Origin: a virus
Reading direction: 5' to 3' (one strand)
Length of the DNA: 64,000 bases
Virus record (IMG/VR): IMGVR_UViG_3300020416_000001
Coordinates: 32,001-96,000 of that record
Each line of letters starts with the position of its first letter. Position 1 is the first letter of the stretch. The notes beneath the pieces were generated by a model. The model did not search any database and had not been told where the DNA came from. It saw only the letters and a program-made list of their open reading frames with translations. This document shows positions 6,743 through 31,274 of this stretch, piece by piece. The translations under genes and the position numbers were made by a program.

Positions 6743-7284
6743 TGGCACTAGGATTAGCAAAACCAGTAGCAAATCATAACGGTTTGCCCTGTACAGGACA
6801 CGGAATACCCATTCCGTCAACAATACACTCAACACAATCGTGTGGAACACCACCGATTAGGTTAGGAATTGTGATGAAAAACAAAACTTGTCTGTGGCCA
6901 CCCACGCCTTTAGTCTCTTTGACTGGTCTAAATCCCTTCAGAGCGATGGTTGTGGTCAATAAAATACCTATAATGATCAAAGGTGATGTGTTCACTCCTC
7001 ATTCGTCACCAACAACTAACATTATTAACTATTTGTGTCCTTGTGGTAAGGCAACCTGTATCATTCCTACTCCAACAATTTGCTCCCTACTGACTGCTGA
7101 AGATATTACAGGTGGTCATCCTAGGGTTCTTGATACTGGGTTCTACCAGTCTGTGAGAGCGTTTAAGATACCCATAGGTAGATTGGGTGATAACTTAGGT
7201 AAAGGCAGTCTACCGCCCGTCAGCATAGGGTATCCGTGTATGTCTAAGATTGCATACGGATCACCTAATGTCCTTGCGGGATAA
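6742..7284 (+). CDS. PAAR-like spike tip protein (T4 gp5.4 analogue)
   Basis: CTGHG, VNKIPIMIKGD..TPH, IPIGRLGD, C..KIAYGSPNVLAG motifs; position upstream of gp25. Confidence 0.8.
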   Translation: MALGLAKPVANHNGLPCTGHGIPIPSTIHSTQSCGTPPIRLGIVMKNKTCLWPPTPLVSLTGLNPFRAMVVVNKIPIMIKGDVFTPHSSPTTNIINYLCPCGKATCIIPTPTICSLLTAEDITGGHPRVLDTGFYQSVRAFKIPIGRLGDNLGKGSLPPVSIGYPCMSKIAYGSPNVLAG

Positions 7285-13300: not shown

Positions 13301-16300
13301 AACCTTCTTGGTCACATCCCGTATCAATAACACACAGTTTGAATATAACATTCCTGCACCTGCTCCAAACGAACCACAGGGTAACATTCTTCTTTCTGTT
13401 GACCTGAACAAAGGTAAGTCTCCTGAAGAAGGTATCAGCGTTGCTATCAGAGACTTTACTACTAACGTACAGAATACATTCTTCAATGATGATTATGCAT
13501 ATGTTGCATCTTCAGGTATTCCTAACTATGAAGTTGGTCCTTTCCTAGGATCTGCGCTTCTCCCTGGAAACCAACGTAAGTTGATCCGTATTCCTAGAAC
13601 TATCAATACGATCTCTAAGCGTACAGACACAACATTCGGTCCTATTGGTTCTTGGGTCAATGGTGTATCAACTTGGTCTTACAAGTCACAGAACAAGATT
13701 AAGTTTGGTGGAGTGACTGGAATCAGTATTGATGACCCAGGTAAAGGATATGACGCAGCAAACCCTCCTGTCATTGAGATCAATGGTGGCGGTGGTACTG
13801 GTGCTAAAGCAAGTGTTGTTGTTAATGGTGCTCTAAGTGAAATCCAAGTTTCTTCTGGCGGTACTGGTTATACTAGTTCTCCTCTTGTTTCCATTGTGGG
13901 TGGTGGCGGATTTGGTGCAACTGCTACTGCTGTTATTACTAACGGCGTAGTTTCCAAGATTCTCGTCGAAACCCCAGGTCAGGGTTACACTTCACAACCT
14001 GACGTTTCTATATCTGGTGGAGGTGGTACTGGTTGTGCTGCTACTGCACAGGTACGTGGTCCAATTCAGTCTGTAACTGTAGATTCTGCAGGAGCAGCAT
14101 ATACGGCATCTCCTGAGATCAAACTAAACTCTGGTGAGGGTGCTGTTGCACAACCTATCATCATTAACGGTAGAATCGTTTCTATCGCTATCATTGCAGC
14201 AGGAAGAGGATATACAACCGCTCCTGAGATTGTTATCAACGGAGATGGTTACGGTGCTATTGCAAGAGCAACTATCGGTAATGTTGGTGAGGATAGAGGT
14301 AAGGTTATCGGTGTTACTGTTGTAAACAGAGGTATCGGTTACACTACTGGTAATACAACTATCCGCTTGGAAGCGGTTGGTGAATTGGCAGAGTTCACTG
14401 CAAGTGTATTTGAGTGGACTAGAAACCTTCAAGATGAACTAGGACAGAACTTTGATACAGCACGTGGTTACGTGTTTGCAGGTTATAACACTCAGTATGG
14501 TGGTGAGTACGCACACCTTTCTGATCCTAAGCAATTAAGATACGTTCTTGGTGATAACGTATTCAAGAATCAGGCAACTCAACAGTTACAGGAACTTACA
14601 ACTGGATACCAACACTCACCTATTTTGGGTTGGGCGTTTGATGGTAACCCCATCTACGGACCTTATGGTTACATTGATGCTACTAACCAATCATCTGGTG
14701 TCAGAAGGATTCGTTCATCTTACAGAATCAAACCCGCACTTATCTTCGACGCTGCAACTAACCCAGAACCAGTTAGAGCAGATGGTCCTCTTCTTACTGA
14801 TTACATTGCGGGATCATTCATTGATGACTTCGAATATGTCTTCCAAGAGGGTGATCTAGACCAATATAATGGTCGTTTCTGTAAGACTCCTGACTTCCCT
14901 GAAGGTGTTTACGCATATTTCGTATCAATCGACGCATCTGATGCAGGTAATCCTGTATTCCCTTACATTTGTGGTCCTCAACTGTACTCTTCACCTGATG
15001 AGTGGAACTTCTCTCAGAGTGCTGTACAGACAAATATCCCATCTAACGTGGTTAGATTCCGTGATCCTTATGAGGATGTGGATATTGATATTGATCGTAC
15101 ACCTAACCAAGCAACTGACACTCTTGTTACTGAACTTGGTGAGGATCTTATCTTTGAAATCGAAGATACTAACAGAGACGGTCTTATTAATAACCTAGAA
15201 GATACCACACCTATTCAGATCACTGAAGAACCCGTACTACAATTATTTGATTACTACCCTAAAGTTTCTACAAGATCTGTTGTTGACATTGATATTGAGA
15301 CTACGACTAAATTCGAAGACGCTAAAGTTGACGGATTCGTGGTTGAGAACCCAGGTATATCCTATAAGGTTAATGATAAACTGTTCTTTGATAATGAAGG
15401 AACTGATGGTTTTGGTGCATCTGCAAAAGTTGAGGCAGTTAAGGGTCTAGACATTGCAGGTTACTCTTCTTATATGACTGGTGATCAACCAGTTGGTAAG
15501 ATTACCACTGCAACTGAGCACGAACTCCGTGTAAATGATCAGATTATTGTTACCAGTACACCTATTCTTGATGACACTAACAAGACTTTCAAGGTAAAAG
15601 TCATATCTGGTGTTGAAAGAGTTACTGTTGATCAGTCTGGTTTAGGATACTCTGAGGATATTCCTCCTACTTACGAGGTTATCACTAACAGTGGACAAGA
15701 TTTTAACATCGACATCGTTAGAGATGAAGGTGGTAGAGTAGAGAACGTTAATATTATCAACTCTGGTTCAGGATACGACGAAAACAATCCTCCTCAGATT
15801 CGTGTTTCTCATCCTCAGAGATTCAAGAAAGCAACTTACTTCTTATCATTCTTGAAAGAAGCAGGTTCTACTCTTACTATTAATGACATTAAAGTTGCTG
15901 ATGATCGTACCTTCTATGTTTGTGGTAAGACTGAGATTGCAGATGGTGATGTAGCAGGTATTCTTGCTAAGTTCAATAGTGATGGTAGATTGCTTTGGCA
16001 GCGTACACTTATTCCTACTGTTCCTCAGACTGCTGATAAGTCACTTCAGTGGAAATCACTTCATATTGAGAACAGTAATCCTCATAACATCTACGTTATC
16101 GGTGAGACAGTTCCTAATGTAGGTAATCTTACTCACAACCCAGATATTGTTGTTGCTAAGTATCAGTCAGGATTTAATAACGCTAACAACCCTGATGGTA
16201 TCATTCAGTGGCAGCGTGATATTGCAGGCATCTCTGGTTCTACTAGAAGAGACTATGCTTCTAGCATTAGACTTGACCAAGATGGTCGTGTAATGATTGC

Positions 16301-19300
16301 AGGTTATACAGACTCTAACGCAACTGCTCCTGACGATATGTGGGTTGCGTTGATGGATATTGACGGATCTATTATGGAGAAGCGTAAGATCGCTTCTGCT
16401 GCTGCTAGTGAGCATCTACATCAAGTCGAATGGAGAACTGACGATACATTCCTCTTCACTGGTATCTCTGACCCTGCAGGTGCTGCTAACATCATTCTTG
16501 GTGAAACATACTATGATACTGCAACTATCGAGGTTGTATGGTCTAAACAAATTGAATCTGCTGCTTATCAGTTTGCTGATCCTACATTTACTATTGATGA
16601 ATACGGTTCAGTTTATGTAACTGCAACTGCCATTGACACAAACGGTAAGAATTACGGTGTTCTTTATTGTAAGTTTGATAATCAGGACTATACAGCAGTA
16701 TCTGTGTCTAAGATGTACGTTCCTACAGGAAATTACACATCTTGTAAGAATGCAGGTGTTGCTTTTGATGTATTTGGTAATATTGACGTCAGTGCACTTG
16801 TTGAGAGAGATTTCAACGATGTTCAATCAGTTACTGCAAAAATTTCTTGGAACAGTGGCAACATTCTTTCTGCTGCTGAAGCAAAAGAAGATTCTGGTAT
16901 TGGTTATCATCCAACTTGTGTTGCAAATGACAACTCTGGTGATACTTTGGTTGCAGGTAATAAGGTTGAGGCACAGCAACTTGCAATCTTCAACTGGAAC
17001 ACTGCAGACAACCTCTTTGATGAAACATACAATGACACTCTAAAAACTGGTACTAACAAGCAGTGGTATGCAACTGGTAACGCTGTTATTGATAACACCA
17101 AGTTTTATAACGGTGCTTCTTCAGTAAAACTTGATGCACCTAACTCATTGCTCCTCCAATACAGCACAACTGCTGATGTTAGTGTTGAGTGGACAATGGA
17201 AGGTTGGTTTGCTCTTGGTGCTACTCAATATGCTGCACAAGCATCTAAACCTGAATTCTTCGGTATTTACTCTCAGTTAGCACAAGAAGTCAAGGTTGGT
17301 GTTGATGGTACTTCAGGTAGTGCTAATTTTGGTAAGATCTTCCTTGATCTAAATGGAACTACATCATATTCAACTGGTACAGCATTCTGGACTGGATTTA
17401 ACTCAGAGGCGTGGGTTCACGTTGCTATTTCTAAGGAACGCCCTGGTGTTGGTTCTTACATCTATCGTATATACGTCAACGGTGTAGAGGCACATTCAGT
17501 AACTAGTGCCAGTGTTGATGTCAATATGATGCAGGTAACTCTTGGTCCTATCTCAACTCCAAGTTCTCAGAACAACTGGATTGGTTGGGTTGACAACTTT
17601 GTGGTTACACCTTCTGCTAAGTACACAGATGCATTCACTGCAGGACTGATAACTGGTACAAACAAAGTTACTGAAGCATTCATCTATAAGATTGACAAGG
17701 ATAAGACAAAACTTGGAACATTTACTCTAAACGATGTAGAGACTGGACATACTCTTACAACTTCCGCCACAAGCAATTATACGTTTAATACCCAACCTGT
17801 ATCTGTTAACCCTTGGTTGATCGGTCCTGCAGGTATTCAGATTCTTGATTACTCTGATGTTGTATCAACTCACGTCCCTGGAGTTTATACCGTAACATCT
17901 ACTGATGAGGCGTGGGCAAGTAGAACTGCTACTATTCCTACACAAGGTGGTAAGAAACTACTCTTAACTACTAAGGTTATTCCTAAGTTCTATATTAGAG
18001 ACGCAAAATACACTAGTATTGACCTTGTTAAGACAATTACATTCAATCAACCTGCAACCTTTACAAAAGGAACTGTTCTTCAGCAGTATTCTACTATTGG
18101 TGGTAACGATGTTGTATCAGCATATGGTACTGTTGTTGAGGTTGGAACTAGTTCTTGTAAGATCGGTAAGATTATTGGTTCGTTTGATACCTCTAAACTT
18201 CTTAAATCTACCGCAGGTGATGTAAACGAGACAGATAAAGAGTTTACAGTTCTAACTACAACTCCTGTCTGGGAACAAAACCAGAACTATGATGTTGGTG
18301 ATATTGTTTATAGTAACGGTAAGATCTATACATCTGGTACTGCTGCAACTGCAGGTCCTATTGCTCCTAATCATACATCTGGTACTGTCTCTGATGGTAA
18401 CATCAACTGGGCATTTACAAGCGTTGCAGGTACCTTCTCAGTAGATTTGGCGAATAGCGTACACGGTTCAGGTACTCTTGCACAGTTTGCATCTTGGAAA
18501 CCTTTCAATGCTTCTGACTATACTATTAGAATCCAACAGATCTATGATGATTCAGACTTCATTAAGGGTGACACCATTGATGCTGATGCTGTTAACTTGA
18601 CATTTGATGTTGATGCAACTGGTAAGATCGCAACATTTGGTGGTCTTGTTGGTGTTAAGCAGTTCAATCTTCAGGCAAAACTCAATAAAGACGTTATTCC
18701 TTCACAGGGACTAACAAATACTGATCTTGTTTACTGCTCTGCTAATACCAGACATAACTTTGCAGCAACTGACATCATCTTTACTGAAGGATTCTCCACT
18801 AATGAATACAACGGTTCATTCTTTGTGGAAGAAGTATTCACTTCTAGAGACTTTACATACAAATTAAGAAGCACTGCTGTTCAGGATCCAACATTCTCAG
18901 GTTCAGGTTCTTCTGTTTCTAACGTTAATATCTTTGCTAAGCATCCTAAGTTCCTATTTGTTAGAGGACATCAGTATATCTTTGACCTTGACGATTCTTC
19001 TAACCTTGGATACTACCTATCATTCTCTAAAGATAACCAGTATAAACTTGAATATCCATTCATTAACATCATTAGAGAGGGTACACCTGGATTTACTGAT
19101 GATGATTCACCAACTCCATTGGTTAAATTCGTCATCAATGATGATGTTACTAACATTTCATACTACTTTGACCCATCTAGAACCACAGCAGACAACTCTC
19201 CTGTTGGTGAAGGGTCATTTATTGACGTTATTGAGTCTCCTTACCAAGGTACATTTACAATTTCGAAGGTTTCTTCCGATGGATTGGAGTTTGACTTCCC

Positions 19301-22300
19301 ACTTCTTGTTGAACCTGAGAAAACTATCGCTCCTGTTGGTAATAATGAGTTTGGAAACCCACGTTCCTTCTACTCTACAACCTCAATCAAGGCGATTGGA
19401 CCTATTGCAAGCATTAAACTGGTAAACCCAGGTGGATTCTATCAGAAATTACCTATTGTTACTGATATTGCATCTAATAGAGAGATTGAAAAGGTCCGTG
19501 TTAACAACGGTGGTACTGAATATGTCAACGGTGTGTACTATAACGTTCCTATTGCAGGAGATGGTGAAGGTGCAACCTGTAATATCACTGTTCAGGATGA
19601 CGGAGACTTCACTGGTGTCATTACTGATGTTGTTTTAACCTCTGCAGGTAAGGGTTACACCTTTGCATCGATTGATGTAGACGCTATCCCTGGAATTCTT
19701 GGTCCTCTTCTTGCAGGTTCAGGTGCACAACTAGAAGTTGTGATTCCTTCTGAGGGATCTGGTGCATCTGTATTCTTACAAGGTAAGTCAATCGGACGTA
19801 TCAAGAAACTTAAGAACAACGAATTTGGTTTCGGTTATTCTCACGACTATACTTTGAGACCTGAAATCACTTTCCCCGTGAACCTTCAGTTGTTTAATAC
19901 CGCTATTCTTGCAGAAATCAAGATTACAGACCCTGGTTCTGGTTATACATCAACACCTGCTGTTGTTATCGAAGGTGGTGGCGGTACAGGTGCTCAGGCA
20001 GAAGCAGTTATTAAGAACAATAGACTTTCTGAAGTTATTATTAAGGATCCTGGTGCAGGATACAGTTCTGAACCTACAGTTACACTTAAGTCTGAGTTCA
20101 ACTACGTTGTTAACATTGACTTAGGTTATCTACAGTTTAACTTCCCACACGGTATTACAACTGGTGCTGAGATCCAGTTGAGAGCAGAAGATCTTGGATC
20201 TACAGTTGGTATCCTTCCAAAACCAAGTTCTGCAGGTTTGGTTAGTTTGTCATCATCTCAGACTTACTATGCTATCGCAGGTGAGGCAAATGGTCTTGAA
20301 TCTGACCAACTTCGTATCTCACTGACTAAACTTGACGCTGAATCTGGTTCTTACATTACATTCTTGACACAGGGTGAAGGTAGACAGATTCTCTTGACCG
20401 AAGTATTTGGTGGTCAAGCAACTGCAATCGTTGAGACTTCAAGATTCCTTGAGGGTGAACTTGTTTATCAGGGTTCATCACTTGAACTTGCATCTGCTAC
20501 TGGTTATGTTTCTACTAACGAAGGTTGGCAGATCGGACCTAGAATCCTTAAACTTGAGAACTATGACGGTGTTTGGACTGCAGGTGAGCGTGTAACTGGT
20601 GAAGTTTCCCGTGCATCTGGTTTGATTGATAACCTTTCAATCGCTCGTGGTACTCTTAATATTGACTCTCTTACCAATACCCCTGGTCAGTTCATTGATG
20701 ACGTTGGTAAACCATCTGAAATTGTTCAGAAAATACAAGACTCTTACTTCTATCAGAACTTCTCTTACGTTATTAAGTCTGAAACACCTATTAACACTTG
20801 GAGAAAACCTGTTCTAGAAACAAACCACCCTGTTGGTTTCAACCTCTTCGGTGAACTAGCAATTACTGGTGGTAAGGATATTTCTGGAAGAAAGGTTGTA
20901 TCTGATCTAATCAAAGAGGTTAATATCAATGCGTTCACAAATATTAACCAAATCACATCATTTGCTAACGCACAACCCATTTATACTCAGTTCAACAACA
21001 CTGAGGTGCTCTTCAGACAGAAGAGACTGACTAACTCTGAGGAAATCCTTACTTCTATTGTTAAGAAGATCGATAACATTTCTGATGACTTTGACGGTGT
21101 TAGAACTCAGTTCCCACTGAATGTTGAGGGTAGTTCTATCACTGCAACTGAAGATCAGATGTTTGTGCTACTCAATGGTGTTGCACAGTCACCTGGAACT
21201 TCATTCTCTACATCAGGTCCTTCTATTGTGTTCTCTGAACCACCTAAGGCACCTTCTAGAATTAAGTTTAGAACTGTAACCTTTGCTCAGTTATTAATTA
21301 CTCGTATCACCTTTGATTTGATCGGTGGTATCTTCCCGCTATCTGGTAACAGAGTCAGAGGTCTTGTTTCTGAGGCAACTGCTACTGTAGTCGATTCTGG
21401 TACTGATTATATCGATGTAATTAATATTGAGGGAACTTTCCAAGCAGGAGAGGCAGTTCTTAATAGTGCTACTGGTTTCAACTCAACTATTGCTTCAAAC
21501 GGTGTAAGCGGTCTTTCATCTAAGACAATCTTCGAACAAGGTGAAAGAATTACTAACCTTGATGGTAAGTTTGCAATCATTGAAGAGAACAACCTTGATG
21601 ATGGTAATATCAACAATGAACTGGTTGTTTCTAGAACATCTGGTACTGCTGAGTATGAAACTGGTGAATTTGAGATCAAGTTCAACGATATAATCTATTC
21701 TGCAAGATCTAAGATTGCAGCAACAGTTTCTGCTATCGCTCCTTATCAGGATGCAGTTTCAGAACAGATTATTGACACTGTTGACCTTTCACCTTCATCT
21801 AGTTTCTTTGCTCTTGTATTCCAGAGAGTTCCTTCAATCACATATCCTAACGTTATCCTTGATAACATTGGAGATACAGTTATTAACCCAACTGAACTCT
21901 ATGATATTGAATCACCTAATAACCAAGACTTCCTAGATTTCGAATCTGTTCGTAACCAAGAGATTCGTTATGATGGTTTGACTGGTAATGACTTTGCACC
22001 TGGAACTAACATCAGACTTAAGAAGATCTACTTTGGTAACTCTTCTATTAGAACTGTACACGATACCCGTGCAAATAACGCTGCAGAGGCACTAGTTAAG
22101 AACGACAGATTCATCGCTGAAGAAGCGGTGGGAATGATGTTGAATTTCTACCCCTCCTTTACTGTTCCTACAGGTAAAGTTAATTGTGAGGACGACATCG
22201 TTGATATGCTCAATCTAATTGCTTGGCAACTTGAGCACGATGGTAACTCTGAGGTTTGGGATGCTGCAAACTTCTATGTTCAGAACAATACTGTATATCA

Positions 22301-25300
22301 CGTTGATGGACAGGTTGCTCAGACAATATATGCAATGAATGCAGCGAGAGATCTCGCTAACAAGTGTATTAATATGGTGGACATCACTACTGAGTACACA
22401 ACTCTGTCTCAGTGGAAGGATCTCACTATTACACCTGAATATGAAGTTGTAAGTAATAGTCACGGTGACGCTAGAACCTTGTTGCTTGCTAACAAGTGGT
22501 TTATTGCGTATGAGTCACTTCACTATGCTAAGACTCTAAACCCAGGTTATAACGTATCTGGTGGAGATGAGCATTGCCTCTCTGACATCGTGGATGTTGT
22601 TGAAGCACTTGCATACAACGTTGCACACGGTGGTAACGATTTCATTTGGGAAGCAACAGATAGAATCCTTCACTACGGTGTAACATCTGGTGATAGAGAC
22701 ACTATTGTCAACTCCTTTACAAAGGCAAAGGCAATGTCTCTCGATATTATGAGAAATATTGCTGTTACCAAGGCAGGATCACACGATTGGAATCAGGTAA
22801 CCATTTCTATCACTGCTGACCCTGCAAGTCCAACTTGTCAGGCAGTTGCTGCTTCTATCACAACATTGATGGATATTCTCATCAATGCTCTTGGTACAAC
22901 TGCATCCCCAGGCACTAGAGAAGCATTCCAAGCAGCAGTTACATCAACTGCTCCTCAGGCAGACTACTCACAAGGTAGAACTACGATTCCTAATGAAAAT
23001 GCTTGTGTTGCTCAGACATCTGCTGTTGCAAACTTCTTCAAAATCATTACTGATACTCTATCAGATCCTACTGGAGCAGATCCTGCTACCTATCAGTGGT
23101 CTATCAGCAATGTTCCTAGAATTGCACCTGCATACACCTTTGAAGCGGGTGAGACAATCCGTTCTATCAAGCATTCTTATAAGGACAAATCATCTGGTGG
23201 ATTCTTCAACTTCGGACAAGTTCTTAAGGGTGTCTCCTCTGGTGCTGTTGCAGAGATCATTGGAACCAATGCAGGTAGCAAATGGGTCTATACAAAGGGT
23301 GTTACTGGAGCATTCAACCCTGCTGAGTACATTACAAACTCAACAATCACATATAATAACGTTACAACTGATAAGTTGAACCCTGGAACTGGCACTGGAT
23401 CACTTGAATTTAGTGGTACAAGTTCTAGACTTAGACACGATTCCAATGCAGCATTTGCCTTTGGAACTGGTGATTACACAGTTGAACTCTGGATCTATCC
23501 TACAACTGTATCTGGTACACAACGTATTATAGATTTCAGAACTGCTTCAAGTAGCAATGCAGGTAGCATCTTCTTACAAGGAACATCAATCAAGTTTGGT
23601 ATTGGCGTAAATGACCATATCACTGGATCTGCTGCAGTTCCTACTGCTAATCAGTGGTATCACGTTGCTATCTCTAGAGCATCTAACGTAACTAAGATGT
23701 TTGTCAACGGTCAACCCGTTGGTTCTGATTACACTGACGCTTCTGATTATCCTAACTCTCCAATCACTGTCGGTGCATCTTGGGCAAATGGTGAGACTTT
23801 CACAGGTAATATGGACAACCTTATTATCAGAAAAGGAACCGCCAGCTACTCTAGTGGGTTTACTCCCCCTACTGTTTACGATTTCAAAGCACTTGACATC
23901 TCATTCGGTTTCAATGGTGAATCACCGTTCCCAATGGAACTCTCTGCAGTCTACGCAACATATCAACAGACTATCATCTCATCTGCTAACGCTGACGGTG
24001 TAGAACTCTGGCGTGAAGAGATTATGACAGAGGAGATTGATGTTTCTCGTGATGATTATAGAGATTGTGCTGATATTATTGATAAGAACCGTTTCTGGAT
24101 CGCAGAAGAAGCAGTTGGACGTATGAAGGAGAAATATCCTGCATTTGTCATCCCAGGTGACGGTGGTGGATCTACTCAAGGTACTGACAAGTGTGTTCGT
24201 GACACTAACTCCTTTATTATCCCTGCAATCATTAATGACCTTAAGTTAGGTGGTAACTTCCACACTATCGTTGCAGGTCGTGGATACTTAGAAGGATCTG
24301 GTGCTCTCAAGCACGTTAATGGTGAACTTCTACAGTCAATCTATACTTGGCGTGAAGTTGGTAAGATCTGTATTGACGTTATCACTAAAGATGAATCAGA
24401 TCTAACTGGTGAGTACACAAATAGAATTAGAGTTCCTAATTATTTCTCATCTCCTGCATCATCAGCAATTCAAACATTCATTTCTGACTTGATTGACAAT
24501 ATGTTGGAAGTTATGTCTCCAACAGGTCACAGATACAGAGATGGTGCTGATCTTCTTTACTTCAACCGTGGCGCGATTGCTGATGAAGCAGTCTCTATGA
24601 TGGAGCAAGAATGGAACGTTCTAATCAACTTTGTCCAACAAGATAAGATTGACATTCCTAGCAGAGAGAAATGTGTAAGAGATATTAGAGACCATATCGT
24701 TCCTGCTGTTGCAGGTGACTTGATCACTGGTGGTAACTCAAATATCCAAGGTATGATTGATTCATATCTCGATTCACAAAGCAATATTAACTATATCGAG
24801 ACTGAGTTGCTTGCAATGCTTGATGCTCTTGAGCACGTCAAGTTCCTTTCAAACAAAGCACTTCAGAACCTCTTAGTTGGTAGAAACGAAAACATTGCTA
24901 ACATTGCAGGTACAACACCTCAAACTATCGATGATTTCTATCAACTTCAGTATAGTGACCTAACAGCATACAGAAAAGAGTATGATGCTGCTGTTAATTA
25001 CGATCTAACTGGCGGTGTTATTACTGAGAGCACCTTCTATCCACCTGATCCTAAGATCTTCCAAGGTACACATAGAGCACTTGATTCTGCAAATATCATT
25101 GAAAGAAATGCTCGTACTATTGCAGGTGAGGCAGTTGACATTGTAACTAAGACATCAGCATTCAAGCACTACAACTTCAGAGTTCCTGGTGGTAAAGTTC
25201 ATTGTGAAGACGACATCGTTGATTTCATCAACTCTGTTGCACACGACTTGAGATTCTCATCTAACAGTGAGGTATATGATGCTGCAGCACTATATCTGAA

Positions 25301-28300
25301 TACAGATATGGGTCTGTCACACGTTACTGGTCAATCACAAGAGACAATCTACGCTTACAAGATGGCGAGAGATATGTCAATTCTCGCGATCCGCAACAAA
25401 CTTGGGTTTACTCCCTTCGAGGAAGCAACCACAGGTGGTGGCGGTGGACAAGGTGGAAATGCCATTGGTGGAGGAGTTCCTCGTGGTGATTATGATAATA
25501 ACGCTACTACTAATAAGGACTACGACGCAGGCAATGAAATAGAAAATAACTTGAGATTCATCGCTACTACTGCTGTAGGACGTGGATATGCTCAGTATCC
25601 TAACCTTACATTTGGTGGTTACGGTTATCAGTCTTGTGTCGATGATGTTATTGACATCCTTGAGGCAATGGCGTGGAACCTCAAGCACGGTGGTAATAAC
25701 AAGGTTTGGTATGCAACTGAGTTCTATATTACTGATGCTAACGCTATTCAGCATATCAACTCTCAGGCAACTGAAGTTAAGTACATCTTCGAGCAGGCAC
25801 GTGACATCGCTATTGAGGTGATGAGACAGCAGTTGGTCACTGTAAATGGTTACACAGAAGGGTATCCAGTTTACGATACTACTATTACTATTGACTCTAG
25901 CAGTTCACAAACTGGTCAGTTAACTCCTACAAACGCAACTTATAATCCTGCCACAGGTGATTTGGTCTTGACTAAGACTGGTCACGGTTTGGTAGCAGGT
26001 GACGCTGTACAGATTGCAACTTATGGATTGAAGTTTACTTGTGACTTTGATGGTAATCAGTCAGAGCATACTTATCCAAGACCTCTCGATCCATCAAACG
26101 GTGCTCTTCTCCCTGTCACATCTTCTAATAGTTCTACATTTACAGTCAACGTTGGAACAACTACTAACGTTAACTACGATGTAAGTAACGCAATCTACGA
26201 AGAAGCAACTGGTAATCTATTCCTTGACATCGGTTCTAACACCTTAGATGTTGGCAGACACATCAAGTTACCTGATAATGCAATTACATTCACTTGTACT
26301 AAGGATGGAAATGCTACTAACCATTCATATCCTCGTCCTAGTGACTATGCATCTGGTAAATCTCTAACTGTTCTTGAGATTGGTGATTCAGAATTTACTG
26401 CAACTAATGCAGCATACGTTCCTGCAACTGGTGTTCTAACTCTTACAGTTCCTAACCACGGGTTTGCTAACGGGGACAACGTTCAGATTGTTACTAACTC
26501 ACTGAACTTCACTTGTGATATGGACAACAACTACACTGTTCATTCATATCCTCGTGTATCTGACCCTGCTGCTAACAAGTATCTTCCTGTTGGAAACGTT
26601 ACTACAAATACATTCACTGTAAACGTTGGTACTACAGGCACTGTCAACTTCACACCTACGAACGTTGCCTACAATCCTATTACAGGAAATATGGTTCTGA
26701 CTCTGGGTACTGGTCACGGTCTTGTTACTGGATCACATCTTAAGATCCAACCTAACTCACTCACCTTTACTTGTGAGGAAGACGACAACGCAACCAACCA
26801 CTCATATCCTAGAACTACAACTACAACTCATACTGTTACCGATGCTGCTTACAACGGCACAACTGGTATTATGACGTTGACCATTCCTCAGCACGGGTTC
26901 TCTAATGGTGATCAAATCAAGATTGCTGATAACTCTCTAACCTTTAGATGTGCTGAAGATAACTATGCAACTGATCACACATATCCAAGAAGCACTGATC
27001 CTGCATCAGGATCTTGGTTGGAAATCTCTAACGTAACTGCTAATACCTTCAAGGTTCAGGTTCTCCTTTCTGACGGTATTCCTTCAACTAACGTTACTGC
27101 TCACAACTTCATTTCAGCATCATCTAGTGGTGTTACTTGGAAGAAGGATAGAGCATACGATGTTCCTCTCGAAGTTATTGCTGCTACTGCAACTACAGTC
27201 ACAGTCAACGTTCTTGCCTCTGGTAGAACTCCTTCAACCAACACAACTACACACACATTTGTCGCTGCCACACCAAATGCAATTTCTGCAGGCGGTAACT
27301 ACACTCACACATTTACCAGTGCAGTTGCGAACGGAATCAAGTTCAAGAACGGTAGAATTAAGGTTAACGTTAACCCTGCACCTACTAGCGAACAATATCC
27401 ACATACATTTGTATCTGCTGTATCTAATGCTGTACAGGGTGGTGGTAACTACAATCACACATTCATCAGTTCTACAACCAACTCAATCAGTTGGATCACA
27501 GGTGGTGGTGGAGCAACAAGATGTGCTACTCAAGCATCTTCTATCACAACATTGATGGGAATCACTATAGATCTGTTCAATAGTGGTACAAGTAACCCAC
27601 AAAACTACATCGACGGCATCTCCAGAACTCTGCCAGGCGAATGGCCACTGACAGGTGAGCGTGCTGCCGTTCGTGATCTGACTATCACATATGATCAGGC
27701 AGGATCTGGTCAGTGTAACGTTGAATCCTCAACTATCAGTTCTCTCTTCGACATCGTTATCGGTGTTGTCAAGGATGCTGCTGCAGGCAATGGTAGTTAC
27801 TTCACTAACCAAGGTATTAGTAGAAACGCACCTATACAGAACAACACCCTGCTATTTGGTGGTGGTGTCTGCTATAACGTGACATCTGCTGCTAACGTTC
27901 TTTATGATCTTCTTGAGGATACACTTGGAAGAGCACCTGAGATGTATCGTCAGGCATCACGTATCATTTCACTGAATGATCTCTACATCAATAGAGAGGC
28001 ATATTACAAAACTGTTAACCAATACTCTGGATATACAGGTGATATTTCATTCGGTGATGATATAAGAAAGGCATACATTTATGACCTATTGACTGATGGT
28101 AATGCTAAAACCGTCGAACTGATTAATAATTGGTTTGATGCCGAGGGCAACTTCATTGCATTCCCTAACATCTTCAGAACATATTTGATCTTCCACGCTC
28201 AGGCAACCACGGATATGATTAAGCATATCCTTTCTGGAACTGCTCCTGAACCTGGAACCTATAATTTGGAACCTCTCTACAAAGATAGAGAACTTCGTCC

Positions 28301-31073
28301 AACAATGACTGCTGTCCATAAGATTGAACAGTTATGGCATTTGGTTTACACTGCACTTGCAGAATCCAAGTTACCAACTGTATTCATCAAGCAGGCAATC
28401 GATGTTGGTGTTGATGTGAATTCTGATGGTTCAATATTCAAACCAAATCATCCATTCGAGGCATATGACAGAGTTAATTACACTGTCTTGGGTACAAATA
28501 TTGTGGAACTTGACAGGTCACAATACTACATCCACCCAGACACTACTTCGGACAGAATCTTCTTGGCAGAGTACATTGATGGACACAAACTTACATCTCT
28601 GACCCCAGGACTCCCAGGTGAGATCCACACATTCTCTGTAAGCAGAACCACTGGTATTGAGCGTATCCCAACAACATTTGGTGATCGTGACATTCCTACA
28701 CCTACATCTGGTGGTATAGAACCTGCTGACATCTTCTACGGTACAACATCTGACGCATACGCTGAAGTTATCCGTGTTCAGGACAACCTTGCTGCTATCA
28801 ATTACAGGGTTGTATTCCTTCCTATCACACTTACATCTGCTCCTGAGGTATTCCTTCAGGGTGAACAGATTGTTAAGACAGGTGCTACAGGTAATGAAGG
28901 TAAGATTATCGCTACTGACAACGCAACTTACATAAAAGTAGAGATGACCAGTGGTTCATTTACTGCTACAGACAATATTGAGGGTATAACTTCAGGTGCA
29001 ACTGGTCTTGTTGGCACAGGAATCCACGATAGATTGATCGTCAACTTCAAGCAAGGTGAGTTTATTGCTACTGATAACATCTATTCTAAGGAAGACAGTG
29101 GTAAAGCAAACGCTCTTATCGTCAGAAATAACGATGGTGCTCTAATTGATAACCAATCAGGTAGAATTACCTATGACATTGAGAGTGTTGTTGGTAACTT
29201 TGAACCTAACGATGTTATCTACGGTTCTGTTACTGATCAGATTATCGAGGTTGAAGCATTCACAATCCTCCCAGGATTCGGTGAGTACGTTCATTCTACT
29301 CAGATTACTAAGTTTACATACGCAGGATTGATTACTGACACAGGAGTTACTGACACATTCAACGTTGGTGATGTGTTACAACTCCAGAACGCAGGACAAT
29401 CTGTTGGTCACACCTTCGTGGTCACTGAGCACGACATTGATAACAACGAAATCTACCTCGCAAATGAGACTGGACGCTTTGTTTCTATCGGTGATGATCT
29501 AAGCGTGATCGCAAATGATGCAGCATATCAACTTGCTAAGATCCCACCTGGATCTAACTTCCCAAGCGTTTACACCTCTGGTATCACACTCGTTACACAG
29601 ACTACAACATCTGCCTACGGTAAGGTCGAGAAGATTCAACAAATTGGTCTTCGCTTGATTATTCACCTTGGTGACACTTCTGGAACATTCCTCAAGAATG
29701 CACAGATCATTGGTGATGCAGGATTCAGAGCAGCGTGTTCAGTCGCTAAGACTCTACGCGGGCGTGTGAAGAGATTCTTCAGAGGATTTGATGGTGTTCA
29801 ACAGAACTTCAAGTTAACTACTGGAAACGGTACTGCATACTTCCCAGATCCTGCAGGTCATATGATGATCTTCGTGAATGGTATCCTACAACCTCCAGGT
29901 GGTAACAACGCATTCACTGCATTCTCTGATAACATCCAGTTCACTGAACCACCTGCGATTGGATCTACATTCCACGGCGTGTACGTTGGTAAATTGAGAC
30001 AGTTGGATGACATCTCATTCGACTTCGACTCCTTGAGAAACTCCTTCAACTTGAAACTTGGTGGTGTGTTCTACTCACTTACACTGACTGATGGTGTACA
30101 ATCCAACACCATTCTTCCTGAGAACAACATCATCTGTCAGTTGAACGGTGTTATTCAGGAACCTGGAATTGGTTTCGAGATCGTTGGTTCTAGAATCATC
30201 TTCTCTGAAGTACCTCGTGCAGGTTCAACCTTCGTTGCCTTCTCATACATTGGTTCTGACGTTGACGTTATCGCAGCAACAGTTGTACCACCTATTGAAT
30301 CGGGTGACATTCTACAGATTGAGGGTGAGGACGAGACTAGAGAGGTTGCTCTAATTGAATCTTCTAACTCACTTATCACATTCGAATACTCGGGTGCTGT
30401 TAAGGGACGTAACGGATCTGCTCTCGCGAACATCGAGAAGGGTCGCGTTATCGAAGCAATCCTTACAAACTCTGGTGATGGTTATACTTCACGTCCTAAC
30501 ATTGACGTGATCTCCTCCTCAGGTTTTGGTGCACGCATCAAGGCACTTGTGGGTCTAGCACGCATCGACGTGAAGAACGCAGGACAGGGTTATGTACAAC
30601 CAACCATCAACGTGAACACTACCGTTCCTGATAGTTTCTTCGCACCTTCTGGTGTTGGAGTCAACGGTGGTATTGACATCTACGATCCAAACTACGTTCC
30701 CCCAGGTGAATCTCAGGCACAGGGTGAGCAGGCGATTGTCATTGAATCTCAACCTGTTAACACAACTGTTAACCAAGGAGATACTGCATCATTCACAGTG
30801 GTCGCTTCTACTAACCCTGTCGGTGGCACAATCACCTATCAGTGGCAGAAGAAGAACTACGGTGAAAGTGACTGGAATAACATCAACGGTGCTACTTCCC
30901 CAACATACACAACGCCAGACACAACTCAGGCAGACGGTGGTGATGAATTCAGATGTGGTCTTACCGCAGCGGGTGCAACACCAACATTATCCAACTCTGC
31001 AGTTCTTACAATCAACATTGGAGCAACTACAGTGGATAACTTCACTCCTGATCAGATCTTCGATGACAACTAA
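10311..31073 (+). CDS. gp7: giant (6920 aa) gp7-like baseplate wedge initiator / multidomain virion protein
   Basis: Between gp6 and gp8; gp7-like segments (QIPAFIKED, IIKTISDFYASKGT...LFKILY, QKIQDSYFYQNFSYVIKS...HPVGF); many V.V..GG.GY..P repeats, YHYH-type domain (~14480-15000), beta-propeller-like block, two LamG domains, helical repeats, C-terminal Ig domain. Confidence 0.8.
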   Translation: MVAHNTAIQVSQRLNSQIPAFIKEDHDQFVNLLTEYYKSQEKSGRPYDVLNSILSYIDIGSGEFDPNFLSSESAVLEAVNPTQNKIVAENVNYFLEKDGTLKIDDEVLYYESVTHSPDIVFTPGVNKQEFDRKIQEFEPINNQFDSSKTEFNLRLLGRPVTPQSSNHLLVIVNGDFMFPDRDYFVEGDRIRFVNPPAATTGALTGAINTIRYLIGYTSVPVRSLDTITVDADAKEFHLKLNTQPYTPLSTVSSIVVVNRVEKRPFEDFTVFNDKLIFKQDVSQNATIDVRSVELIAPEFGSGAAAVSQIEGGSVSDILVKNGGQGYRVSFAPRITIQSNKGPGEGATAEALVNGIKNTQLLFPGQGYSSNNPPIVVVDDPADSEGSRAQITAIVSDEIEGVSELRVTSSGSGYDRIPSIKFVNPGGATITDPVVEGGSIKTGSISVIDRGSGYSSPPLVYMDPPTGDNAINATAIAVLDDDGRVERIDIISNGQGYEGAIRARIVDPVGAQILDVSCTGGRVTNIELLTGGKGYTDAPSVYIVDNRKDTNGQPIGGEGATAVATIFNGEITDINITSFGNGYSDTEPPKVFIAAPPVPEASCDVGFGEITGFTIHSDGSGYEPSAFTGVKRGVSGVTSFDQKGHQIYSKESSLVQSSHAKGAVIHNLDNLFAKELYRRFVNQYLPNAEIDYTKVNAPQIIKTISDFYASKGTKISTQYLFKILYSENVDVSYPKDEVIKPSAATWNVDTVLRAELLEGSPENLLDSQLIQYIDDVDVNVRGASALVENVIAINTGVGTVYELAISEETLQGAFTIPYKTTLVEELSTTESIITVDSTIGWPERNGTIRINDDEVVQYKEKTLNQFIECTRSKNGVVEDWDAGTIVHSDIFVYVNRGTDTECKLRVLGIADAESTVLSDNGSYYLPGDKLNVASLGSTTNDKRITSWLYNVKKLINITQIIPGGLNNQTATVTCSNNHGLLVGDTVTIYGANPTVFNGTFLVTSRINNTQFEYNIPAPAPNEPQGNILLSVDLNKGKSPEEGISVAIRDFTTNVQNTFFNDDYAYVASSGIPNYEVGPFLGSALLPGNQRKLIRIPRTINTISKRTDTTFGPIGSWVNGVSTWSYKSQNKIKFGGVTGISIDDPGKGYDAANPPVIEINGGGGTGAKASVVVNGALSEIQVSSGGTGYTSSPLVSIVGGGGFGATATAVITNGVVSKILVETPGQGYTSQPDVSISGGGGTGCAATAQVRGPIQSVTVDSAGAAYTASPEIKLNSGEGAVAQPIIINGRIVSIAIIAAGRGYTTAPEIVINGDGYGAIARATIGNVGEDRGKVIGVTVVNRGIGYTTGNTTIRLEAVGELAEFTASVFEWTRNLQDELGQNFDTARGYVFAGYNTQYGGEYAHLSDPKQLRYVLGDNVFKNQATQQLQELTTGYQHSPILGWAFDGNPIYGPYGYIDATNQSSGVRRIRSSYRIKPALIFDAATNPEPVRADGPLLTDYIAGSFIDDFEYVFQEGDLDQYNGRFCKTPDFPEGVYAYFVSIDASDAGNPVFPYICGPQLYSSPDEWNFSQSAVQTNIPSNVVRFRDPYEDVDIDIDRTPNQATDTLVTELGEDLIFEIEDTNRDGLINNLEDTTPIQITEEPVLQLFDYYPKVSTRSVVDIDIETTTKFEDAKVDGFVVENPGISYKVNDKLFFDNEGTDGFGASAKVEAVKGLDIAGYSSYMTGDQPVGKITTATEHELRVNDQIIVTSTPILDDTNKTFKVKVISGVERVTVDQSGLGYSEDIPPTYEVITNSGQDFNIDIVRDEGGRVENVNIINSGSGYDENNPPQIRVSHPQRFKKATYFLSFLKEAGSTLTINDIKVADDRTFYVCGKTEIADGDVAGILAKFNSDGRLLWQRTLIPTVPQTADKSLQWKSLHIENSNPHNIYVIGETVPNVGNLTHNPDIVVAKYQSGFNNANNPDGIIQWQRDIAGISGSTRRDYASSIRLDQDGRVMIAGYTDSNATAPDDMWVALMDIDGSIMEKRKIASAAASEHLHQVEWRTDDTFLFTGISDPAGAANIILGETYYDTATIEVVWSKQIESAAYQFADPTFTIDEYGSVYVTATAIDTNGKNYGVLYCKFDNQDYTAVSVSKMYVPTGNYTSCKNAGVAFDVFGNIDVSALVERDFNDVQSVTAKISWNSGNILSAAEAKEDSGIGYHPTCVANDNSGDTLVAGNKVEAQQLAIFNWNTADNLFDETYNDTLKTGTNKQWYATGNAVIDNTKFYNGASSVKLDAPNSLLLQYSTTADVSVEWTMEGWFALGATQYAAQASKPEFFGIYSQLAQEVKVGVDGTSGSANFGKIFLDLNGTTSYSTGTAFWTGFNSEAWVHVAISKERPGVGSYIYRIYVNGVEAHSVTSASVDVNMMQVTLGPISTPSSQNNWIGWVDNFVVTPSAKYTDAFTAGLITGTNKVTEAFIYKIDKDKTKLGTFTLNDVETGHTLTTSATSNYTFNTQPVSVNPWLIGPAGIQILDYSDVVSTHVPGVYTVTSTDEAWASRTATIPTQGGKKLLLTTKVIPKFYIRDAKYTSIDLVKTITFNQPATFTKGTVLQQYSTIGGNDVVSAYGTVVEVGTSSCKIGKIIGSFDTSKLLKSTAGDVNETDKEFTVLTTTPVWEQNQNYDVGDIVYSNGKIYTSGTAATAGPIAPNHTSGTVSDGNINWAFTSVAGTFSVDLANSVHGSGTLAQFASWKPFNASDYTIRIQQIYDDSDFIKGDTIDADAVNLTFDVDATGKIATFGGLVGVKQFNLQAKLNKDVIPSQGLTNTDLVYCSANTRHNFAATDIIFTEGFSTNEYNGSFFVEEVFTSRDFTYKLRSTAVQDPTFSGSGSSVSNVNIFAKHPKFLFVRGHQYIFDLDDSSNLGYYLSFSKDNQYKLEYPFINIIREGTPGFTDDDSPTPLVKFVINDDVTNISYYFDPSRTTADNSPVGEGSFIDVIESPYQGTFTISKVSSDGLEFDFPLLVEPEKTIAPVGNNEFGNPRSFYSTTSIKAIGPIASIKLVNPGGFYQKLPIVTDIASNREIEKVRVNNGGTEYVNGVYYNVPIAGDGEGATCNITVQDDGDFTGVITDVVLTSAGKGYTFASIDVDAIPGILGPLLAGSGAQLEVVIPSEGSGASVFLQGKSIGRIKKLKNNEFGFGYSHDYTLRPEITFPVNLQLFNTAILAEIKITDPGSGYTSTPAVVIEGGGGTGAQAEAVIKNNRLSEVIIKDPGAGYSSEPTVTLKSEFNYVVNIDLGYLQFNFPHGITTGAEIQLRAEDLGSTVGILPKPSSAGLVSLSSSQTYYAIAGEANGLESDQLRISLTKLDAESGSYITFLTQGEGRQILLTEVFGGQATAIVETSRFLEGELVYQGSSLELASATGYVSTNEGWQIGPRILKLENYDGVWTAGERVTGEVSRASGLIDNLSIARGTLNIDSLTNTPGQFIDDVGKPSEIVQKIQDSYFYQNFSYVIKSETPINTWRKPVLETNHPVGFNLFGELAITGGKDISGRKVVSDLIKEVNINAFTNINQITSFANAQPIYTQFNNTEVLFRQKRLTNSEEILTSIVKKIDNISDDFDGVRTQFPLNVEGSSITATEDQMFVLLNGVAQSPGTSFSTSGPSIVFSEPPKAPSRIKFRTVTFAQLLITRITFDLIGGIFPLSGNRVRGLVSEATATVVDSGTDYIDVINIEGTFQAGEAVLNSATGFNSTIASNGVSGLSSKTIFEQGERITNLDGKFAIIEENNLDDGNINNELVVSRTSGTAEYETGEFEIKFNDIIYSARSKIAATVSAIAPYQDAVSEQIIDTVDLSPSSSFFALVFQRVPSITYPNVILDNIGDTVINPTELYDIESPNNQDFLDFESVRNQEIRYDGLTGNDFAPGTNIRLKKIYFGNSSIRTVHDTRANNAAEALVKNDRFIAEEAVGMMLNFYPSFTVPTGKVNCEDDIVDMLNLIAWQLEHDGNSEVWDAANFYVQNNTVYHVDGQVAQTIYAMNAARDLANKCINMVDITTEYTTLSQWKDLTITPEYEVVSNSHGDARTLLLANKWFIAYESLHYAKTLNPGYNVSGGDEHCLSDIVDVVEALAYNVAHGGNDFIWEATDRILHYGVTSGDRDTIVNSFTKAKAMSLDIMRNIAVTKAGSHDWNQVTISITADPASPTCQAVAASITTLMDILINALGTTASPGTREAFQAAVTSTAPQADYSQGRTTIPNENACVAQTSAVANFFKIITDTLSDPTGADPATYQWSISNVPRIAPAYTFEAGETIRSIKHSYKDKSSGGFFNFGQVLKGVSSGAVAEIIGTNAGSKWVYTKGVTGAFNPAEYITNSTITYNNVTTDKLNPGTGTGSLEFSGTSSRLRHDSNAAFAFGTGDYTVELWIYPTTVSGTQRIIDFRTASSSNAGSIFLQGTSIKFGIGVNDHITGSAAVPTANQWYHVAISRASNVTKMFVNGQPVGSDYTDASDYPNSPITVGASWANGETFTGNMDNLIIRKGTASYSSGFTPPTVYDFKALDISFGFNGESPFPMELSAVYATYQQTIISSANADGVELWREEIMTEEIDVSRDDYRDCADIIDKNRFWIAEEAVGRMKEKYPAFVIPGDGGGSTQGTDKCVRDTNSFIIPAIINDLKLGGNFHTIVAGRGYLEGSGALKHVNGELLQSIYTWREVGKICIDVITKDESDLTGEYTNRIRVPNYFSSPASSAIQTFISDLIDNMLEVMSPTGHRYRDGADLLYFNRGAIADEAVSMMEQEWNVLINFVQQDKIDIPSREKCVRDIRDHIVPAVAGDLITGGNSNIQGMIDSYLDSQSNINYIETELLAMLDALEHVKFLSNKALQNLLVGRNENIANIAGTTPQTIDDFYQLQYSDLTAYRKEYDAAVNYDLTGGVITESTFYPPDPKIFQGTHRALDSANIIERNARTIAGEAVDIVTKTSAFKHYNFRVPGGKVHCEDDIVDFINSVAHDLRFSSNSEVYDAAALYLNTDMGLSHVTGQSQETIYAYKMARDMSILAIRNKLGFTPFEEATTGGGGGQGGNAIGGGVPRGDYDNNATTNKDYDAGNEIENNLRFIATTAVGRGYAQYPNLTFGGYGYQSCVDDVIDILEAMAWNLKHGGNNKVWYATEFYITDANAIQHINSQATEVKYIFEQARDIAIEVMRQQLVTVNGYTEGYPVYDTTITIDSSSSQTGQLTPTNATYNPATGDLVLTKTGHGLVAGDAVQIATYGLKFTCDFDGNQSEHTYPRPLDPSNGALLPVTSSNSSTFTVNVGTTTNVNYDVSNAIYEEATGNLFLDIGSNTLDVGRHIKLPDNAITFTCTKDGNATNHSYPRPSDYASGKSLTVLEIGDSEFTATNAAYVPATGVLTLTVPNHGFANGDNVQIVTNSLNFTCDMDNNYTVHSYPRVSDPAANKYLPVGNVTTNTFTVNVGTTGTVNFTPTNVAYNPITGNMVLTLGTGHGLVTGSHLKIQPNSLTFTCEEDDNATNHSYPRTTTTTHTVTDAAYNGTTGIMTLTIPQHGFSNGDQIKIADNSLTFRCAEDNYATDHTYPRSTDPASGSWLEISNVTANTFKVQVLLSDGIPSTNVTAHNFISASSSGVTWKKDRAYDVPLEVIAATATTVTVNVLASGRTPSTNTTTHTFVAATPNAISAGGNYTHTFTSAVANGIKFKNGRIKVNVNPAPTSEQYPHTFVSAVSNAVQGGGNYNHTFISSTTNSISWITGGGGATRCATQASSITTLMGITIDLFNSGTSNPQNYIDGISRTLPGEWPLTGERAAVRDLTITYDQAGSGQCNVESSTISSLFDIVIGVVKDAAAGNGSYFTNQGISRNAPIQNNTLLFGGGVCYNVTSAANVLYDLLEDTLGRAPEMYRQASRIISLNDLYINREAYYKTVNQYSGYTGDISFGDDIRKAYIYDLLTDGNAKTVELINNWFDAEGNFIAFPNIFRTYLIFHAQATTDMIKHILSGTAPEPGTYNLEPLYKDRELRPTMTAVHKIEQLWHLVYTALAESKLPTVFIKQAIDVGVDVNSDGSIFKPNHPFEAYDRVNYTVLGTNIVELDRSQYYIHPDTTSDRIFLAEYIDGHKLTSLTPGLPGEIHTFSVSRTTGIERIPTTFGDRDIPTPTSGGIEPADIFYGTTSDAYAEVIRVQDNLAAINYRVVFLPITLTSAPEVFLQGEQIVKTGATGNEGKIIATDNATYIKVEMTSGSFTATDNIEGITSGATGLVGTGIHDRLIVNFKQGEFIATDNIYSKEDSGKANALIVRNNDGALIDNQSGRITYDIESVVGNFEPNDVIYGSVTDQIIEVEAFTILPGFGEYVHSTQITKFTYAGLITDTGVTDTFNVGDVLQLQNAGQSVGHTFVVTEHDIDNNEIYLANETGRFVSIGDDLSVIANDAAYQLAKIPPGSNFPSVYTSGITLVTQTTTSAYGKVEKIQQIGLRLIIHLGDTSGTFLKNAQIIGDAGFRAACSVAKTLRGRVKRFFRGFDGVQQNFKLTTGNGTAYFPDPAGHMMIFVNGILQPPGGNNAFTAFSDNIQFTEPPAIGSTFHGVYVGKLRQLDDISFDFDSLRNSFNLKLGGVFYSLTLTDGVQSNTILPENNIICQLNGVIQEPGIGFEIVGSRIIFSEVPRAGSTFVAFSYIGSDVDVIAATVVPPIESGDILQIEGEDETREVALIESSNSLITFEYSGAVKGRNGSALANIEKGRVIEAILTNSGDGYTSRPNIDVISSSGFGARIKALVGLARIDVKNAGQGYVQPTINVNTTVPDSFFAPSGVGVNGGIDIYDPNYVPPGESQAQGEQAIVIESQPVNTTVNQGDTASFTVVASTNPVGGTITYQWQKKNYGESDWNNINGATSPTYTTPDTTQADGGDEFRCGLTAAGATPTLSNSAVLTINIGATTVDNFTPDQIFDDN
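16960..17650 (+). other. LamG/concanavalin A-like domain 1 within giant protein
   Basis: WTMEGWF...WVHVAISK...RIYVNG...WIGWVDNFVV. Confidence 0.7.
23380..23900 (+). other. LamG/concanavalin A-like domain 2 within giant protein
   Basis: GTGDYTVELWIYP...QWYHVAISR...KMFVNG...FTGNMDNLII. Confidence 0.75.
25918..27500 (+). repeat. five nested beta-rich repeats (Y.P.TG...HG...FTC..D...H.YPR ... H.F)
   Basis: Five openers and five H-[TN]-F closers visible in the translation. Confidence 0.8.
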
Positions 31074-31076
31074 ATA

Positions 31077-31274
31077 ATGGAAGATAATGAATTCTATTGT
31101 GAGTGGAGGATGGGAATCCACGAACTTCGTGCATTCTACGATCACCTTACTTACTCGATCAAGATGTGGCCAGGTTCTCCTGCGAGACCTGCTGATGAAC
31201 AAGTGTTTCTCGAACGCTTGAAGAAACAAACTTTTGCGATGATCTGTGAATATAACCTTACGGAAATCGACTAA
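31077..31274 (+). CDS. small hypothetical protein (WPGSPARPADEQ motif)
   Basis: ORF track; tightly packed between structural genes. Confidence 0.7.
   Translation: MEDNEFYCEWRMGIHELRAFYDHLTYSIKMWPGSPARPADEQVFLERLKKQTFAMICEYNLTEID

Follow-up and report, generated by a model that had tools for sequence, protein, structure and literature searches.

The Giant Gp7-Position Protein and Its Repeat Units

The stretch of DNA analysed here (referred to as the window) comprises 64,000 nucleotides of the IMG/VR virus record IMGVR_UViG_3300020416_000001 (171,756 bp, 94% complete), in which it corresponds to C1:32001-96000. The virus is an uncultured T4-like cyanomyovirus, of which the window represents the structural module. 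Within this module, a giant open reading frame (ORF) of 6,920 amino acids (aa) extends over positions 10311..31073 of the + strand, on which the units and helices described below are also located. The subject of this report is a family of helical units in the C-terminal half of this protein, which show similarity to the subunits of phycobiliproteins and most of which carry a Cys residue at the position where a bilin is bound in these proteins. The giant ORF occupies the gp7 (baseplate wedge) position. It matches phrog_701/2885 (virion structural protein / baseplate wedge subunit), the ORF upstream of it is phrog_219 (gp6-like baseplate wedge), and downstream of it are found phrog_677 (connector), phrog_438/708 (wedge) and the fibre genes. 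The gene order gp6 - gp7 - gp8/9/10, by which a T4-like gp7 can be recognised, is thus seen around the giant ORF and it is the same in the phage P-HM2. Relatives (P-HM2, S-SSM7) are also annotated as gp7, and the match of the giant ORF to PF23786 is weak (E 0.054). The designation of this protein as a baseplate protein, in an original prediction made from the letters of the window, is therefore in agreement with the gene order and the PHROG 701/2885 assignment; the basis for this designation is genomic and not proteomic, the virus being uncultured.

The original prediction described six units of ~110 aa, accompanied by a seventh which lacks Cys. All of these are present and every motif quoted for them is found exactly, and in frame, within the single ORF. 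However, they are properly counted as seven members of one repeat family, and the length of a full unit, inclusive of its tail and its H helix, is ~130-160 aa. A hidden Markov model (HMM) constructed from the seven units identified exactly seven copies in the entire 171.8-kb record, all of them within the giant ORF. The pairwise identity among the units is 20-40%, with four residues, viz. N, I, D (at Cys+3) and N, being invariant. The Cys is found in the same alignment column in six of the seven units and the Asp at Cys+3 in all seven, and the Cys content of the giant protein as a whole is 0.53%. The positions given originally for the unit Cys residues (3959, 4089, 4628, 4788, 4965 and 5109) and for those in separate helices (4176, 4232, 5738, 5802 and 5854) are likewise exact.

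The core of unit 1 (helices A/B, E, F and G; motif N-C-E-D-D, Cys3959) is located at 22041..22448, as delimited by the HMM envelope and by helices 15-116 of the second structural model described below. It is followed by the core of unit 2 (22434..22829; HMM; H-C-L-S-D, Cys4089), which is nested in unit 1. The core of unit 3 (24027..24452; K-C-V-R-D, Cys4628) is the most phycobiliprotein-like of the seven, and in the alignment it is followed by a contiguous helix at 24459..24515, which has Ser in place of Cys and which, by analogy with unit 2, is probably its H helix. The HMM envelopes of unit 4 (K-C-V-R-D, Cys4788) and unit 6 (S-C-V-D-D, Cys5109) place their cores at 24504..24947 and 25488..25904, respectively. 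Between them lies the core of unit 5 (25047..25436; H-C-E-D-D, Cys4965), which is without a tail and H helix of its own and matches only positions 4-115 of the 137 in the HMM. Unit 7 (27915..28367; HMM and alignment), in which F-G-D-D is found in place of the Cys motif, has a contiguous H helix.

Sequence Similarity of the Units to Phycobiliproteins

The C-terminal half of the giant protein matches the phycobilisome protein family PF00502 with 31 bits (E 3e-7), the cut-off for this family being 22.2 bits, and unit 3 alone matches it with 19.4-19.6 bits, which is just under the cut-off. When 123 non-redundant units were scanned singly, PF00502 was matched by 37 of them, and the next family by 4. 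A profile of the seven units gave 42 matches to the sequences in PDB, of which ~38 were phycobiliproteins (best E 0.006). Upon addition of units from other cyanophages, the resulting profile of 51 units gave 144 matches, nearly all of them phycobiliproteins, with a best E of 3.2e-7. In these matches, positions 7-70 of the profile always fall on residues 33-104 of the phycobiliproteins and the unit Cys falls on Cys84, bearing out the original proposal that this Cys is at the bilin-site position. The pattern which is common to the units and the phycobiliproteins consists of Y/F-P, P-G, K-C-x-R-D-I, L, I and Y-x-L-x-x-G-G. Equivalents of all three of the residues Cys84, Arg86 and Asp87 are present (as K-C-V-R-D) only in units 3 and 4, and units 1, 2, 5 and 6 contain the Cys and the Asp without the Arg. 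Unit 3 aligns with ApcF (6hrk_A) over 51 residues and, because this alignment contains no gap, unit 3 retains a B-E loop of phycobiliprotein length; it is the only unit to do so, the other unit types showing a 7-residue deletion in this loop in the alignments of the profile with PDB sequences. Among the 123 non-redundant units, the Cys is found in 80% and the Asp in 82%, and in six orthologues of the giant protein the unit Cys and H-helix Cys residues are all conserved. No sequence match for the units was seen with the sensor globin or RsbR-type non-haem globin families in the Pfam or PDB searches.

Predicted Fold and Nesting of the Units

Structures were predicted by AlphaFold2 without templates, the alignment used for unit 3 consisting of 123 sequences, all of them taken either from the window or from IMG/VR loci. 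For unit 3, the predicted local distance difference test score (pLDDT) was 81 and the predicted template modelling score (pTM) 0.76. The first ~50 Foldseek matches of this model are all phycobiliproteins, with template modelling (TM) scores of 0.55-0.67. A VIA search, which is independent of Foldseek, placed the beta subunit of phycoerythrin (PE) first (Z 12.4, 131 residues), followed by allophycocyanin (APC), ApcE, PE alpha and photocobilin domains. All of the top ten matches in this search (Z 12.4-9.1) are phycobiliprotein-family or bilin-binding globin domains, and sensor globins are reached at Z 8.6. A second model, covering aa 3905-4265 (units 1 and 2 and two of the Cys-containing helices), has a pLDDT of 87.1 and a pTM of 0.78, and its phycobiliprotein matches (Z 12-15) extend up to the C-terminus of the matched chains, with root-mean-square deviations (rmsd) of 2.1-2.6 Å over 117-123 residues. 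The sensor globins and RsbR-type non-haem globins, with structural Z values of 8.6-11.4, rank under the phycobiliproteins. In both models the predicted fold is globin-like and comprises helices A, B, E, F', F, G and H, and the structural searches, of the kind proposed originally, give phycobiliproteins as the first matches of each model. In the structural matches the units begin around residue 22-33 of the phycobiliproteins (residues 33-39 in the profile matches), and the X-Y helical hairpin, by means of which the alpha-beta monomer is formed, is therefore absent from them, as was also originally suggested. The PF00502 match, the PDB profile matches and the predicted fold are therefore in agreement in placing the units in the phycobiliprotein family.

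The second model also clarifies the nature of the separate Cys-containing helices. The portion of it consisting of unit 2 and the Cys4176 helix (model residues 143-291) superposes on ApcE (4xxi_A; Z 14.0, rmsd 2.2 Å, 118 residues), on 8imk_G (Z 12.6, rmsd 2.1 Å, chain residues 33-158 of 158) and on PE alpha (Z 12.2). As this superposition extends to the C-termini of the phycobiliproteins, the Cys4176 helix (22836..22892; model helix 270-290, pLDDT ~90), which is aligned with helix H of ApcE, APC and PE, represents helix H of unit 2. Cys4176 itself (model residue 272) lies in the first turn of this predicted helix and it is conserved in the six orthologues. Further, about 12 globins align across model residues 11..351 with ~125 residues, which correspond to unit 1 and the distal helix after Cys4232 (23004..23060; model helix 329-347), skipping unit 2. 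Due to this, unit 2 together with its H helix is interpreted as being nested in unit 1, where it separates helix G from helix H, and the distal helix completes unit 1. A natural variant provides information regarding unit 6, where a beta-repeat block (25902..27518, aa 5198-5736) separates the tail of the unit from the helix starting at Cys5738 (27522..27578). Three relatives (L008, L013 and L055) lack exactly this block, and in them unit 6 is continuous with the Cys5738 helix, as is also seen in the alignment of a fourth (L054). By the sequence pattern, the helix starting at Cys5854 (27870..27926) is probably the H helix of unit 4, and the tail and helix at 27714..27770, with the pattern D-L-T-I-T followed by the helix with Cys5802, probably belong to unit 5. 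The beta-repeat block itself contains five repeats with a conserved Cys in each.

According to the original prediction, the separate helices resemble the beta-155 bilin site in the C-terminal region of phycobiliprotein beta subunits. The part of this claim which stands is that they are H helices and that their Cys is near the place of beta-155, at the end of the G-H loop; however, there is no sequence alignment at this place. A profile extended via the tail and the H helix was also compared with PDB, but only helices B-E aligned (best E 0.003) and the beta-155 claim gained no sequence support. Because the extended profile aligns no phycobiliprotein in the H-helix region, the proposed equivalence with beta-155 is one of topology only and not of aligned residues.

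Based on the sequence profiles, the predicted folds and the natural insertion/deletion variant, we consider it highly probable that all seven units truly belong to the phycobiliprotein branch within the globin-like fold, that they lack the X/Y hairpin and form part of a baseplate protein at the gp7 position, and that in some cases helix G of an earlier unit has been separated from its helix H by the insertion of a later unit or of the beta-repeat block.

The Unit Family in Other Cyanophages and Metagenomic Proteins

A profile of the 123 units matched 1,421 representative proteins (50% identity clusters) among 1.84 billion at E <= 1e-3, with 486 of them at E <= 1e-30. The best matches, showing as many as 35 matched stretches, are giant proteins from metagenomes, in which up to ~27-35 units of 108-115 aa, without helix H, are arranged in tandem. 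These tandem units carry K-C-x-R-D-[VI]-G-[YF] nearly throughout (in the protein P0003 the Cys is present in 27/27, the Asp in 27/27 and the Arg in 25/27 units), and several of the tandem-array proteins contain almost no Cys beyond the one per unit. Pfam contains no model of its own for the unit family or the tandem arrays. One of these proteins, P0005, with 23 units (L105:5567-18721), is encoded in a marine contig of the T4-like type next to genes resembling gp13 and gp15, and this gp13 has its closest match in Microcystis phage Mel-JY01. When the 23 units of P0005 were made into a profile and compared with PDB, there were just two weak matches (E ~0.5), both to phycocyanin alpha. Judged by the sequence profiles, the link of the tandem subfamily to phycobiliproteins runs via the baseplate units.

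When 50,697 phage records were searched by tblastn, matches were found in 351 records with units 3-4 as the query and in 148 with a piece of P0005. All of these are named as Synechococcus or Prochlorococcus phages or as cyanophages, with the addition of one 'Marine' record, and the matching proteins include some annotated as tail or short tail fibre. The structural matches in BFVD are similarly cyanophage 'structural', 'tail' and 'tail fiber' proteins, none of which has a phycobilisome-type name, and a search for small stand-alone homologues yielded fragments only. The original suggestion of an amplification of this domain among the virion proteins of cyanophages is supported. No description of phycobiliprotein-fold domains in cyanophage virion proteins was found in the literature searched; what is new is the occurrence of a domain of this family in a different context and architecture.

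Comparison with Known Systems

The alpha and beta subunits of phycobiliproteins (phycocyanin, phycoerythrin and allophycocyanin; PF00502) resemble the phage units in a globin-like fold which spans helix A/B to helix H, in the sequence of the B-loop-E region (Y/F-P, P-G, K-C-x-R-D, Y-x-L-x-x-G-G) with its Cys at the position of Cys84, and in having a further Cys where helix H begins, in the vicinity of beta-155. However, these subunits are free proteins of ~160-180 aa, assembled in (alpha-beta)3 discs, whereas the phage units are domains in an ORF of 6,920 aa and differ in their lack of the X/Y hairpin, in their nesting, in a pocket loop that is mostly shorter by 7 residues and in the lack of the Arg in 4/6 of those with Cys. 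The core-membrane linker ApcE, which attaches its own bilin autocatalytically, resembles the giant protein in containing a phycobiliprotein-fold domain, with a loop insertion, in a large multidomain protein, and ApcE 4xxi_A is also the best low-rmsd structural match of unit 2. Unlike the phage protein, it is a cellular component of the phycobilisome with one such domain, it shows no tandem or nested amplification, and the Cys by which its bilin is attached occupies a position other than 84. Photocobilins (8j2y, 8j2w), in which a bilin-binding globin-like domain is combined with a B12 photoreceptor, provide an example of a bilin-binding globin fold with a sensory role outside of light harvesting (Z 10.5-11), but they are bacterial cytoplasmic photoreceptors and no sequence match of the units to them was detected. 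T4 gp7 (1,032 aa) is similar to the giant ORF in its position between gp6-like and gp8/gp9/gp10-like genes; however, in the search of the 50,697 phage records the phycobiliprotein-like domain was not found outside of the cyanophage records.

Do the Units Carry a Pigment?

A gene for a PcyA-type phycocyanobilin:ferredoxin oxidoreductase (NF002760, 220.5 bits; cut-off 206 bits) is present in the same record, outside of the window, at G000:C1:106419-107090 (L018:1405-2076), and a bilin reductase is found in two of the three IMG/VR genomes that were checked. The genes ho1, pcyA, pebS and cpeT are carried only by myocyanophages, with the exception, for pebS, of one podovirus (PMC10452541), and the role of the phage bilin genes has been termed a mystery (PMC3037559) or unclear (PMC2984593). 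Adsorption in the dark does not occur in the cyanomyoviruses P-HM1 and P-HM2 but does in the podoviruses P-SSP7 and P-GSP1, and the light dependence has been ascribed to changes, of an unknown nature, which light induces in the receptors or tail fibres (PMC6628666). In gp7 of P-HM2 (L107; 4,454 aa), two units of the K-C-x-R-D type (KCARDT and KCIRDT) are present, and no units were found in the genome of P-SSP7 (L108). Further, in the sequence comparisons the residues best conserved between phycobiliproteins and the phage units are the chromophore motif itself, viz. K-C-x-R-D-[IV]-G-Y.

We tentatively suggest that a thioether-linked bilin may be present on at least those units in which K-C-x-R-D is intact (units 3 and 4), and consider this close to, but short of, an even prospect. 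In such a case, the giant protein would be made late in infection, in a cytoplasm containing free bilins and with the phage supplying its own pcyA, and the bilin would be attached either by host lyases of the S/U or T type or autocatalytically, as in ApcE. The units with C-E-D-D, C-L-S-D, C-V-D-D and F-G-D-D would serve mainly as structural beads. The periphery of the baseplate would then carry chromophores, and a light-driven change in them could gate the deployment of the fibres or baseplate, which would account for the light-dependent adsorption of cyanomyoviruses. The broadest form of this proposal, in which the baseplate and fibres of cyanomyoviruses, with covalently chromophorylated domains derived from phycobiliproteins, would constitute the phage's photoreceptor gating adsorption and the long-sought client of the phage bilin genes pcyA, pebS and ho1 and of the T-type lyase CpeT, is in our view unlikely. 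For the explanation favoured here, when taken as a whole, the chances of its being correct or incorrect appear to us to be equal.

Several observations weigh against the attachment of a pigment, and a number of them favour an alternative in which the captured fold now serves, free of pigment, only as a compact helical element from which baseplate and fibre proteins are built. In this case the Asp and Arg would be kept for stability of the fold and the Cys would serve another purpose, such as the formation of inter-unit or inter-chain disulfides after lysis in oxic seawater. In four of the six units with Cys (those with C-E-D-D, C-L-S-D or C-V-D-D), Asp or Ser is found in place of the propionate-binding Arg while the Cys is kept, indicating that the constraint on the Cys does not depend on a canonical bilin site. 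Most of the units, as judged from the gaps in the profile alignments, lack the seven residues of the B-E loop that wall the phycobiliprotein pocket, the tandem 108-aa units are without helix H altogether, and unit 7 functions without Cys. In the literature searched, no paper or experiment reports a pigment in cyanophage virions. Additionally, the extended profile shows no likeness to phycobiliproteins in the second half of the unit or in the H-helix Cys region, no CpeT (PF06206) or heme oxygenase (PF01126) was identified in this record, which is 94% complete, and the parallel between the distribution of the units in P-HM2 and P-SSP7 and their light-dependent and light-independent adsorption concerns two phages only. 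However, a loss of binding would not be expected to leave the chromophore motif as the best-conserved part of the domain, folding of the protein takes place in a reducing cytoplasm, and no intradomain disulfide is possible in the many family members in which there is a single Cys in each unit and hardly any outside of the units. To a role as a pigment-free scaffold we assign a probability distinctly below even.

Two further possibilities appear much less probable. The pocket could have been re-used for another ligand (a metal, another tetrapyrrole or a host surface molecule, as in host recognition), or the Cys could be redox-active or catalytic. The invariant polar and aromatic residues of the tandem family (Y39, C44, R46, D47, D58, Y74, S79 and T89) look like a binding site, and the acidic variants after His (H-C-E-D-D, H-C-L-S-D) are more like metal ligands than a bilin site; however, there is no precedent for such use, the Arg near the Cys in most family members is ill-suited to a metal and the units show no likeness to any other Pfam family, making this explanation improbable. 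That the units are an unrelated helical repeat, with a chance likeness in one helix-loop-helix, could be argued from the fact that the sequence similarity spans only profile positions ~7-70, that the scores of single units are under the Pfam cut-off and that Z values of 12-15 can arise between unrelated helical proteins. However, the E value improves from 0.006 to 3.2e-7 with the deeper profile, the matches are almost only to phycobiliproteins and in one register, the independent template-free folds put phycobiliproteins first over the full span from helix B to helix H, and among phage records only cyanophage-named ones are matched. Such convergence is already largely refuted and we regard it as very improbable indeed.

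The feature described here allows testing of whether a virus particle carries pigment. It also makes testable two puzzles, viz. why cyanomyoviruses, including those infecting Prochlorococcus hosts devoid of phycobilisomes, hold working bilin-synthesis genes and a CpeT lyase, and why some cyanomyoviruses need light in order to adsorb. Even if no pigment is present, the result shows that a fold of the host's light-harvesting apparatus was captured, lost its dimerisation hairpin, became nested and multiplied to give a very large family of domains in virion proteins.

Other Domains of the Giant Protein

Between the nest formed by units 1 and 2 and the core of unit 3, a Laminin_G_3 (concanavalin-like lectin) domain is located at 23454..23828 (PF13385, E 2.8e-19), and this domain is a possible candidate for a carbohydrate-binding part of the giant protein. 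In the N-terminal half of the ORF, a YHYH domain (PF14240, E 6.7e-30) is found at 14427-14936 (aa 1373-1542), and the ORF next after the giant ORF (31274-33016) holds a domain which is related to YHYH. At the C-terminus of the giant protein, positions 30738-30941 (aa ~6810-6877) show weak matches to Ig_3 / Hoc-like immunoglobulin domains (Pfam E 0.01; phrog_4069 E 3e-5).

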